Positions 24,088 to 25,670 of a stretch of 64,000 bases of DNA are shown piece by piece. The position numbers and the translations under genes are program-made. Under the pieces are notes generated by a model. That model was given only the letters and a program-made list of their open reading frames with translations, ran no database searches and was not told the DNA's origin. The stretch's first letter is position 1; each line of letters begins with the position of its first letter. Source of the DNA: an uncultured Chloroflexia bacterium. Lineage in GTDB: Bacteria; Chloroflexota; Anaerolineae; Anaerolineales; Anaerolineaceae. The stretch spans positions 376,297 to 440,296 of the forward strand of contig CAWHEB010000002.1 of assembly GCA_963828285.1 (NCBI GenBank). Direction: 5' to 3'.

Positions 24088-24354
24088 TTATCCGCAGCAA
24101 ACTTCCTTCCTCCCCAGCAGCGCGGACGAGATCATCGCCGCCGCGCAGCCAACCCCATTATGAACGCGGATGGCTCCCTCCGCGCAGTTGCGTTTGCACG
24201 CGCCGCATTCCATACAGGCAGTCGCATTCACGATCTGCGAGCGGTGATCCTTCATCTCAAAGACCGCGTGCGGACAAACATTCACACACATCGCGCAGCC
24301 GTTGCATTTTTCGACATCCAGAACCAGCGTATTTTCAAGGTAAGAATTGAACAT
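24088..24354 (-). CDS. hgcB: HgcB, 2[4Fe-4S] ferredoxin of the mercury-methylation pair
   Basis: Two ferredoxin motifs, CNGCAMCVNVCP and CMECGACKRNC. Internal conserved Cys in GVGCAAAMIS. C-terminal vicinal cysteines (..EVCCG). Starts 9 nt after hgcA. Confidence 0.8.
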   Translation of the reverse strand: MFNSYLENTLVLDVEKCNGCAMCVNVCPHAVFEMKDHRSQIVNATACMECGACKRNCAEGAIRVHNGVGCAAAMISSALLGRKEVCCG

Positions 24355-24363
24355 GAAGACTCC

Positions 24364-25358
24364 TTAGCGAACGAAAGCAAAAACGATCAATAAGATCAGG
24401 CCGATCCCAAAGCTGAAAGCCATCGGACGTATGTACGAGAAGATCTCCTTCCGCACACCTGTGCGCGAGGTGAAGGTGGTGGCGCCGGTGAAATTGAGCG
24501 ATATAAAAGAAATGCTGGCTGACAAAGCCAGGAAATACCCCAAACTCTGCCCAAATCGCTGGTACCAGCTCCAATTTGAATGTAACAGAACGGAAAGGAC
24601 AAATGGAATAGCAACCACCAGCCCGAGGAAAGCACCCTTGGTGCTGAAATCCTTGGTCGGCAGCCAGGGTAAAAGGATTGGGAAGAATGCTGTTCCGCAC
24701 AGGAAGACTGTCAAAGCCGCCAGCGCATAAGCCAGTCCGCCGATCAGATACGCCACGACCATCGCCAGCAGCGCTGGCAGCAGAGTGGTGACGAATTCAA
24801 CCGGGACAAGGACCAACCGGTCGCGGATCGGGAATTTTACCTGCCGCATATCCGCAGTCGCTTTGTGATTTTTTAGGTACTCCGGCAGGTCTTCCGCCCG
24901 CACTGGACCGTACTCAACCGTAAAACCGGTTTCCTGTTTGACCCTGTGCGCTTCAACACCCGGGAGCTCCCAACTGTGGCAGGATGATCCGGTGGTGGTT
25001 GACAACTTTTCCCAGTTCCACGGCTTCGATCCGTCGCACCAGTTCGCCAGTGCCGAAAGGTCTTCTTGCCAGCCGCGCACCACACATTCACACCCCTGGT
25101 ATCCAGTACCAGAATGTAGGCATCCATCCCGCGCAGGACTGTACGCAGGGCGTCAAAACTCAGCGAGTAATTTGCGGTCACAAAGACGCTCGAATCCGCG
25201 GTCGGTGAGCCGACCTTGTAAAGTCCGGGTGAAACACGGTGTTCTCCGCGGCGGATTCCCATCCGCGCCAGGAAATGGTCCCAGTGGTTGGCTGAGGTCA
25301 TCTCCGTGTTGGCTGTCATCAAGGTGGATGTGCTGGGTACGGTATCCGTTAAAGTCAT
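24364..25358 (-). pseudogene. hgcA: HgcA, corrinoid protein with C-terminal transmembrane domain; two apparent +1 frameshifts
   Basis: Cap-helix signature GVNVWCAAGKKTF. Continuation FGTGELVRRIEAVELGKVVNHHRIILPQLGAPG is in a second frame. VEAHRVKQETGFTVEYGP.. plus a 5-TM domain is in a third frame. ATG at 25358 with RBS aggag. Confidence 0.8.
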
Positions 25359-25391
25359 TTGCTTTCTCCTGCATCGCAATTGATGGCTAAT

Positions 25392-25670
25392 TCATCGCTT
25401 GAAAACTTGGTAACGATCTGGTCGCAGCATACAGAAAGCAGATTGCGGTTGAGCTGGTAATAGGTCTGCTTTGCCGTCTTCCTTGAAATTGACCAGTCCG
25501 GCTTCCCGCAGGATCGCCAGATGATGCGAGACGGTCGGCTGGGTGACATTCAGTTGTTCGACAATATCATTGACCGTCCGCCAGCGGCAGCAGGTCAGTT
25601 TCATGATCTTCTGCCGGGTCTCATCGGCGATCGCCTTGGCAAATAAAACAGGGTTGAGAGTAGTTGTCAT
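25392..25670 (-). CDS. ArsR/SmtB family metalloregulator upstream of hgcAB
   Basis: HTH ..RQKIMKLTCCRWRTVNDIVEQLNVTQPTVSHHLAILREAGLV. Vicinal CC before the HTH. Confidence 0.85.
   Translation of the reverse strand: MTTTLNPVLFAKAIADETRQKIMKLTCCRWRTVNDIVEQLNVTQPTVSHHLAILREAGLVNFKEDGKADLLPAQPQSAFCMLRPDRYQVFKR

Follow-up and report, generated by a model that had tools for sequence, protein, structure and literature searches.

What can be concluded about the function of a mercury-methylation cassette that is complete in gene content and order while two of its three reading frames are interrupted? This question is raised by an arsR-hgcA-hgcB trio lying inside positions 24088-25670 of a 64,000-nt stretch of contig CAWHEB010000002.1 (hereafter the window), from an uncultured Chloroflexia bacterium, with all three genes on the minus strand. 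The operon is authentic and belongs to an Anaerolineae (Leptolinea-like) bacterium, and DNA alignments to three intact relatives reveal that it differs from them by exactly three 1-nt insertions within the cassette, one in arsR and two in hgcA. These insertions are probably local consensus errors in a long-contig assembly, and not the signs of gene death. Any claim that the methylation cassette works hinges on this point, i.e., on the insertions being sequencing errors and not real. The identity and order of the three genes had been proposed in an initial annotation made from the letters alone (which left the strand unstated), and hidden Markov models (HMMs), alignments and synteny bear them out.

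The first gene, arsR (25670-25355, minus strand), encodes an ArsR/SmtB-family regulator and is followed on the same strand by hgcA (25358-24364), for a corrinoid protein with a predicted C-terminal membrane domain, and by hgcB (24354-24088), for a 2x[4Fe-4S] ferredoxin of 88 amino acids. The TGA of arsR overlaps the ATG of hgcA (ATGA), the frame of that TGA being the open reading frame (ORF) 25355..25549, and 9 nt separate the hgcA stop from the hgcB ATG, with a GGAG ribosome-binding site before hgcB. The gene identities were accepted on the basis of curated HMMs, the full-length gap-free alignment to intact HgcA proteins and the identical synteny in relatives. The curated NCBIfam cutoffs were 275 bits for HgcA (NF040863), 99 for HgcB (NF040864) and 55 for ArsR/SmtB (NF033788), and for comparison those of the gamma subunit of the corrinoid iron-sulphur protein (CFeSP; NF003195, 306 bits) and of an HgcAB-like fusion (NF043039, 285 bits) were considered. 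hgcB is a single intact ORF that scores 105.7 bits on its model and also matches Fer4 Pfam families; 77 of the 79 related loci have it directly 3' of hgcA. Everything that had been attributed to it was found, namely the distance of 9 nt from hgcA, the two ferredoxin motifs (C17xxC20xxC23xxxC27P and C47xxC50xxC53xxxC57), the internal cysteine of GVGC70AA and the C-terminal cysteine pair (VCCG). Rfam and tRNA scans gave no match within or near the cassette.

The case of hgcA requires more attention, given that an uninterrupted reading frame is absent from the sequence as it stands. The gene spans 995 nt, that is, 331 codons plus two inserted bases, and as sequenced it is distributed over three frames (the coding-potential path runs through frames -2, -0 and -1). 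In a six-frame view, the first frame gives the piece MTLTD...GVNVWCAAGKKTF (ORF 24873..25379, minus strand), the second gives GTGELVRRIEAVELGKVVNHHRIILPQLGAPG (minus strand), and the third gives VEAHRVKQ... through the hydrophobic C-terminus (ORF 24364..25083, minus strand). The continuous HgcA of the initial annotation, with the string IILPQLGAPGVEAH following the cap helix, does not exist as such, for this string spans the second junction and is present in no single frame. Once the two bases are removed, the resulting protein of 330 amino acids reaches 415.9 bits with NF040863 (E = 1e-124), covering positions 2 to 324 of the 325 in the profile, whereas the two encoded fragments stay at 140.7 and 204.2 bits. 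The HMM search that had been suggested as a check is thus answered positively by the corrected HgcA and by HgcB, but not by the encoded HgcA fragments, each of which falls below the cutoff.

The corrected HgcA aligns without gaps to 12 intact homologues, including both junctions, and 128 columns are invariant over the 13 sequences, among them the cap helix and LPQLGAPG. The cap-helix motif GVNVWCAAGK is indeed encoded where it had been recognised (25094-25065, minus strand); it corresponds to HgcA residues 89-98 and contains the cobalt-ligand cysteine C94, with N91, V92, W93, C94, A96, G97 and K98 invariant in the alignment. Even the middle segment, which is out of frame, keeps the invariant G102, T103, E105, R109 and I125-G133. 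Of the 130 columns on which the other 12 sequences all agree, the corrected protein deviates at only two, both times conservatively, while the intact homologues themselves deviate at 1-7 such columns. A search of 5.8 billion proteins returned Chloroflexi/Anaerolineae matches of 330-331 amino acids with 100% query coverage, the best one at 83% identity. As for the C-terminal half, the Kyte-Doolittle profile is hydrophobic at residues 180-233, 237-262 and 305-330, the first of these stretches having space for two helices, and less strongly so at about 268-295, so hydropathy predicts a multi-helix membrane domain of about five helices. The transmembrane domain that had been claimed is therefore supported by the hydrophobic segments between residues 180 and 330, but it lies in a separate frame from the cap helix.

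The positions of the three insertions could be established precisely, and each of them is consistent with a run of two identical nucleotides having grown by one (AA to AAA, TT to TTT and GG to GGG) with respect to the closest intact relative. The arsR frameshift (25470-25472, minus strand; alignment column 209) reads GGCAA[A]GCAG, with AAA against AA in the relatives. The first frameshift in hgcA (25055-25058, minus strand; column 626) reads ACCTT[T]CGGC, with TTTC against TTC or TTT-G in the relatives, and is situated directly after ...CAAGKKTF, while the second (24958-24964, minus strand; column 723) reads CCCGG[G]TGTT, with CCCGGGTGTT against CCCGGGGTG in the closest relative, and falls in the invariant LPQLGAPG|V. 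The cassette has, in addition, one in-frame codon difference, which is common to the closest relative, L081.

The ArsR protein as encoded (64.2 bits on NF033788) is still above the cutoff; removal of one base gives a protein of 104 amino acids with 76.3 bits on the same model and 57.8 bits on HTH_5. As sequenced, the gene is a 92-amino-acid ORF (25392..25670) in which the frame is lost after ...FKEDGK, and the conserved tail QTYYQLNRNLLSVCCDQ...AGESK* (QTYYQLN...SVCCDQ...ESK*) is out of frame, in ORF 25355..25549, so that an intact frame through the wing and the Cys-rich C-terminal tail is not present as encoded. The corrected protein shows the cysteine pattern CC(27,28), in TCC, CC(81,82) and C97. 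Accordingly, the description of an ArsR with vicinal cysteines immediately upstream on the same strand holds for C27 and C28, whereas the frameshift deprives the encoded protein of its C-terminal cysteine pair.

Unlike the coding regions, whose products share only about 75-83% identity, the leader of the operon is nearly invariant among relatives. It contains a sigma-70-type promoter (25691..25718, minus strand) in which TTGACA and TATAAT are separated by 16 nt, agreeing with the consensus at 12 of 12 positions, and the leader of approximately 55 nt that runs from the -35 hexamer up to the arsR ATG is near-invariant in the window and in loci L001, L002, L006 and L081, the DNA farther upstream being unrelated. 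Two palindromes of the form TATAGA-N6-TCTATA are embedded in it and represent putative ArsR operators: O1 (25695..25712) lies in the spacer and overlaps the -10 hexamer, and O2 (25670..25687) includes both the ribosome-binding site and the A (25670) with which the arsR ATG begins. Loci L001-L080 are the hgcA loci among the matches listed in a scan of genome contigs, L081 having been found separately, and 27 of those 80 carry the palindrome with at most one mismatch, in nearly every case a short distance upstream of arsR or hgcA, against an estimated chance expectation of about 1.7 loci in 754 kb. An ArsR homologue is encoded directly upstream of hgcA in 26 of 79 loci, and no more than 2 kb away in 10 others. 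Other arrangements exist as well: in L004, L005, L016, L024 and L039 a second copy, (A/T)ATAGA-N6-TCTAT(A/T), is found between arsR and hgcA, about 50-80 nt upstream of the latter, and in L008-L014 and L022 arsR stands some 0.9 kb upstream of hgcA and is accompanied by a palindrome pair of its own. The palindromes are therefore kept across several architectures, which suggests that the putative operator travels with its regulator. Altogether, we infer from this arrangement that the operon may be autorepressed by ArsR.

The insertions in the cassette are not isolated events. At least 10 frameshifts affect unrelated genes on both strands of the window, nine of ten being +1 and one -1, each supported either by consecutive profile coordinates in adjacent frames or by one full-length match after correction. 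Apart from those in the cassette, they were located in a MalT-like regulator (237-241, +1), a Zn peptidase (19695-19698, +1, and 19958-19962, -1), a DUF3159 gene (about 22332, +1), a CDF transporter (27651-27653 and 27746-27748, both +1) and a TPR protein (60109-60110, +1). The Zn peptidase illustrates the effect of correction, its fragments scoring 120.8 and 67.6 bits and the corrected protein 245 bits, over positions 8-289 of a 290-position profile. Most of the broken genes are richer in G+C than average. Eight of the ten frameshifts (five others and the cassette's three) fall within 8 kb (19695-27748; P of about 2e-6 under uniformity), and this clustering between 19.7 and 27.8 kb suggests either a local problem of sequence quality or a decaying island.

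Are the insertions, then, errors or real mutations? Consensus error is favoured by the predominance of +1 events, the absence of other damage, the pristine state of the promoter and operators and the load of broken genes that the alternative would imply for the whole genome. The genes for HgcA, the Zn peptidase and the CDF transporter are hit twice each, with no nonsense codon or larger deletion in the genes checked; HgcA keeps its invariant residues, the promoter and the operators are untouched, and correction turns every frameshifted gene into one full-length profile match. Bacterial pseudogenes naturally decay with a bias towards deletions, and about one frameshift per 6.4 kb, extrapolated genome-wide, would amount to hundreds of broken genes, which would be unusual for a free-living bacterium. 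Moreover, the DUF1295 neighbour of the cassette (22784-23650) is 100% identical to the database protein P0121, encoded on one NCBI/ENA contig of 1,634,186 nt, and a contig of 1.63 Mb, being typical of long-read assemblies (as in related MFD genome bins), was counted in favour of an artefact. The need to correct frameshifts in long-read assemblies is documented (bioRxiv 10.1101/2020.03.12.974238). No match was obtained in JGI metagenomes for an exact pattern that tolerated the indel and crossed the first hgcA frameshift. Exact-sequence look-ups with HgcB, the DinG-like protein and the DUF1295 protein gave no match either, P0121 having come from a homology search. Nonetheless, some observations weigh against consensus error: the accumulation of eight of ten frameshifts in 8 kb is not predicted by uniform sequencing error, and only two fall in a further 45 kb or so of coding sequence (serS, tsaD, selA, fhs, a DinG-like helicase and others). 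The clustering would be accounted for if an accessory island had locally low coverage or strain heterogeneity. Besides, all the broken genes are accessory, as real relaxed selection would also give, and, to our knowledge, mercury methylation has not been demonstrated by experiment in any member of this Anaerolineae clade.

The rival that has to be taken most seriously, while unlikely on balance, is that the insertions are real, with arsR-hgcAB and the neighbouring accessory genes of an 8-kb island studded with hairpins having been inactivated very recently by slippage, in an organism that no longer methylates mercury and that represents an early stage of hgcAB loss. Such an inactivation would fit the strong clustering of the frameshifts, the restriction of the hits to dispensable genes while the housekeeping genes of the window are intact, and the signs of rearrangement in the region, which include a second copy, 271 nt long and 85% identical, of the 3' end of a PEMT/ICMT-like gene, situated next to hgcB, and four copies of a hairpin repeat (three exact and one 74%-identical), the only ones in the window. 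It would fit, too, the usual attribution of the patchy distribution of hgcAB over lineages to gene loss and transfer (PMC7438021). The same findings that favour error speak against it, however, as it would have to reconcile genes hit twice with an otherwise clean record, nine insertions of ten with the usual deletion bias, a perfectly preserved promoter and operators with loss of function, and a pseudogene load unusual for free-living Anaerolineae; furthermore, two indels per kb acquired by neutral decay should have brought many substitutions, judging from typical substitution-to-indel ratios. A more specific version of the same idea is more doubtful still: that real +1 slippage occurs, far above the rest of the chromosome, in an 8-kb accessory island bounded and punctuated by identical GC-rich hairpins, with arsR-hgcAB caught at the first step of its loss, when residues, promoter and operators are all pristine. 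If true, the real insertions would be a natural example of mercury-methylation capacity being shed, and of localised indel hypermutation.

Two further explanations are of a different kind and can be weighed together with the former ones. The frameshifts might be real but overcome in translation, by programmed +1 ribosomal frameshifting or some other recoding, so that full-length HgcA and ArsR would still be made. Some of the contexts do resemble +1-slippery sites (UUU-C at 25055-25058 and 237-240, AAA-G in arsR and CCC-G in hgcA), but the GTG-T-CTA, GGA-A-GCT and TTA-C-CTG sites permit no tRNA re-pairing, one of the events is -1, no stimulatory element is common to the sites, the orthologues of four relatives read through these very codons as normal ORFs without interruption, and two shifts 95 nt apart in hgcA would leave a negligible full-length yield; recoding was consequently rejected as highly improbable. 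Finally, the gene might not be hgcA, but encode a corrinoid protein of the acetyl-CoA pathway (of the CFeSP/AcsC type) or an HgcAB-like fusion paralogue. A better match to the CFeSP family had been named in advance as what would overturn the assignment, and the corrinoid domain does match Pfam CdhD (43.9 bits), while the only relatives found in the PDB are CFeSP gamma subunits (residues 42-162, 37 bits). In spite of this, the corrected protein is far from the CFeSP gamma model of acetyl-CoA decarbonylase/synthase (67.9 bits against 306, over profile positions 323-448 only) and from the fusion model (218.7 against 285), with hgcA and hgcB being separate genes, and it clearly exceeds the HgcA cutoff with the score given above; the cap-helix cysteine motif and the predicted C-terminal membrane domain are present as well. 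This last explanation can practically be discounted. Consensus error thus stays the preferred reading of the three insertions.

If the insertions are errors of that kind, how would the cassette work? Transcription would start from the consensus sigma-70 promoter, and the repressor encoded by the first gene, of the ArsR family, would close that promoter by binding to the two palindromes, until a thiophilic ligand frees it through its cysteine pairs. HgcA would combine a CFeSP-like corrinoid domain, in which the cysteine of NVWCAAGK would act as the cobalt ligand, with its membrane domain, and would methylate Hg(II), with methyl-cob(III)alamin as the methyl donor. The cobalt would be re-reduced by HgcB, the 2x[4Fe-4S] ferredoxin, which has additional cysteines. 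The organism itself probably holds an intact and working cassette.

The surroundings of the cassette show some traces of past rearrangement. A 31-nt GC-rich hairpin repeat, with the stem GGGCGGAC / GTCCGCCC, is located 10 nt past the hgcB stop (24048..24078; -18.2 kcal/mol, 8-bp stem, no T-tract), and an identical copy in direct orientation is found some 40 nt ahead of the arsR promoter (25756..25786). Further copies exist at 20618-20648 (exact) and 27237-27267 (diverged), and a 26-nt core is repeated exactly three times in the window. These belong to a short-repeat family, GGGCGGAC-N6-GTCCGCCC, some copies of which are followed by GCAATCCCC-type units, with further occurrences at 25813-25887 and 27299-27324, and all the copies of the hairpin family in the window fall in the frameshift-rich region. 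The exact hairpin repeats were not found in any of the 80 listed hgcA loci (L001-L080), and L081 has only a related hairpin, in the same place upstream of its promoter. The two hairpins that flank the operon were considered as boundaries of a mobile cassette, an idea that was rejected in view of the three exact copies and one diverged copy interspersed in the region, their absence from the 80 listed loci and the related hairpin of L081; the element looks like a lineage-specific interspersed repeat or an RNA-end hairpin. In addition, a 271-nt direct repeat (85% identical) links 21400-21670 with 23704-23974, the second copy being an orphan 3' end of the PEMT/ICMT-like gene 20999..21655. This orphan duplicate lies some 110 nt past the hgcB stop (24088), and a former rearrangement beside the cassette can be deduced from it. 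No sign of recent horizontal acquisition was observed, since the G+C content of the cassette (0.54) is above that of its flanks, as in every relative checked, and the DUF1295 neighbour is 85-86% identical to its nearest relatives, i.e., about as diverged as HgcA (83%).

Functional context had also been sought in fhs, proposed as the supplier of the one-carbon branch from which the methyl group would derive. The gene at 54864..56774 (plus strand) is a genuine FTHFS (855 bits), but it lies 29 kb away from the cassette, on the opposite strand and unlinked to it, with the housekeeping genes serS, tsaD and selA, peptidase genes and others in between. No other Wood-Ljungdahl gene was seen among the genes in the window, and the argument from fhs is consequently weak. 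The 616 residues of this FTHFS align to a 556-position profile, which means about 60 extra residues with respect to the Pfam model. Close to it, a c-di-GMP-I-GGC riboswitch aptamer (RF03167; 54429-54520, minus strand; 63.4 bits against a gathering threshold of 59) is located just upstream of an ORF of 238 amino acids with no Pfam family (53701..54417, minus strand). Elsewhere in the window, two MalT-like paralogues of the LuxR family (1-2130 and 11287-14022) show a mosaic similarity, with 89% identity over residues 200-278 of the 911-amino-acid protein and 54% over the remaining 630, and gene conversion may be behind it. A Ras-family small GTPase (61454-61960, plus strand; 146 bits) adjoins a flagellin gene (62303-63556, plus strand). 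Anaerolineae are usually described as non-motile.

As for what this locus contributes, the occurrence of hgcA in Chloroflexi is well documented (PMC7438021), and an arsR gene upstream of hgcAB, already reported with Chloroflexi included (PMC7438021; bioRxiv 10.1101/2022.10.17.512643), is not new either, so that the locus is otherwise an ordinary member of a known lineage. What is added here is the conserved promoter with its putative double operator, the three frameshifts and the functional uncertainty resulting from them. The promoter with its two TATAGA-N6-TCTATA palindromes provides a concrete putative operator for the ArsR linked to hgcAB in Anaerolineae. The frameshifts, in turn, have a practical side: with both HgcA fragments scoring below the cutoff, surveys of hgcA based on HMM scores would miss such a locus, whereas a translation across frames would count it as functional without warrant. 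The frameshift flag therefore decides whether the organism is listed as a putative methylator.

Among the closest known systems are the intact arsR-hgcA-hgcB loci of uncultured Anaerolineae, namely L081 (ENA ERZ27271327 k119_485011; HgcA 83% identical), L001 (MFD00905.bin.1.53; 76%) and L002 ('Leptolinea sp.' SRP302447_co2_431; 74%). These share with the window the gene order, an ArsR of 104 amino acids (in the window after correction), the ATGA overlap, the 9-nt spacer between hgcA and hgcB, the promoter and the operators, and differ from it in their uninterrupted reading frames and in their flanking genes. For the phylum, McDaniel et al. 2020 (PMC7438021) describe a conserved putative regulator upstream of hgcAB in metagenome-assembled genomes of Chloroflexi and Deltaproteobacteria, with transcripts from Chloroflexi. 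The double TATAGA-N6-TCTATA is not mentioned in the available parts of that paper or of bioRxiv 10.1101/2022.10.17.512643, no literature search having been aimed at the palindrome.

In Pseudodesulfovibrio, as reported in bioRxiv 10.1101/2022.10.17.512643, an arsR-like gene is co-transcribed with hgcAB (ArsR2 of ND132 and its counterpart in P. hydrargyri BerOc1), and orthologues of ArsR2 (DND132_1054, which has a four-Cys site) were found only in the Desulfovibrionaceae. As in the arsR-hgcAB loci of that family, a Cys-rich ArsR/SmtB gene lies in the window immediately upstream on the same strand, evidently within one transcription unit; the restriction of the ArsR2 orthologues to the Desulfovibrionaceae nevertheless indicates that the ArsR of the window probably belongs to a different subfamily. 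The experimentally defined HgcA/HgcB pair of Pseudodesulfovibrio mercurii ND132 has the same order, hgcA and then hgcB. HgcA shares with its ND132 counterpart the cap helix N(V/I)WCA(A/G)GK with the cysteine ligand, the CFeSP-like corrinoid domain and the (here predicted) C-terminal membrane domain, and HgcB shares the two CX2CX2CX3C motifs, the internal cysteine and the C-terminal Cys-Cys. They differ in that the window belongs to another phylum, with Anaerolineae-type sequences, and contains an hgcA with two 1-nt insertions. With respect to the CFeSP gamma subunits AcsC/CdhE (PDB 2h9a, 4c1n and 4djd), whose corrinoid-binding domain is homologous to HgcA residues 42-162, the HgcA of the window lacks the [4Fe-4S] N-terminal domain and the TIM barrel, and has instead a predicted membrane domain and a cap helix of the Cys-on type.

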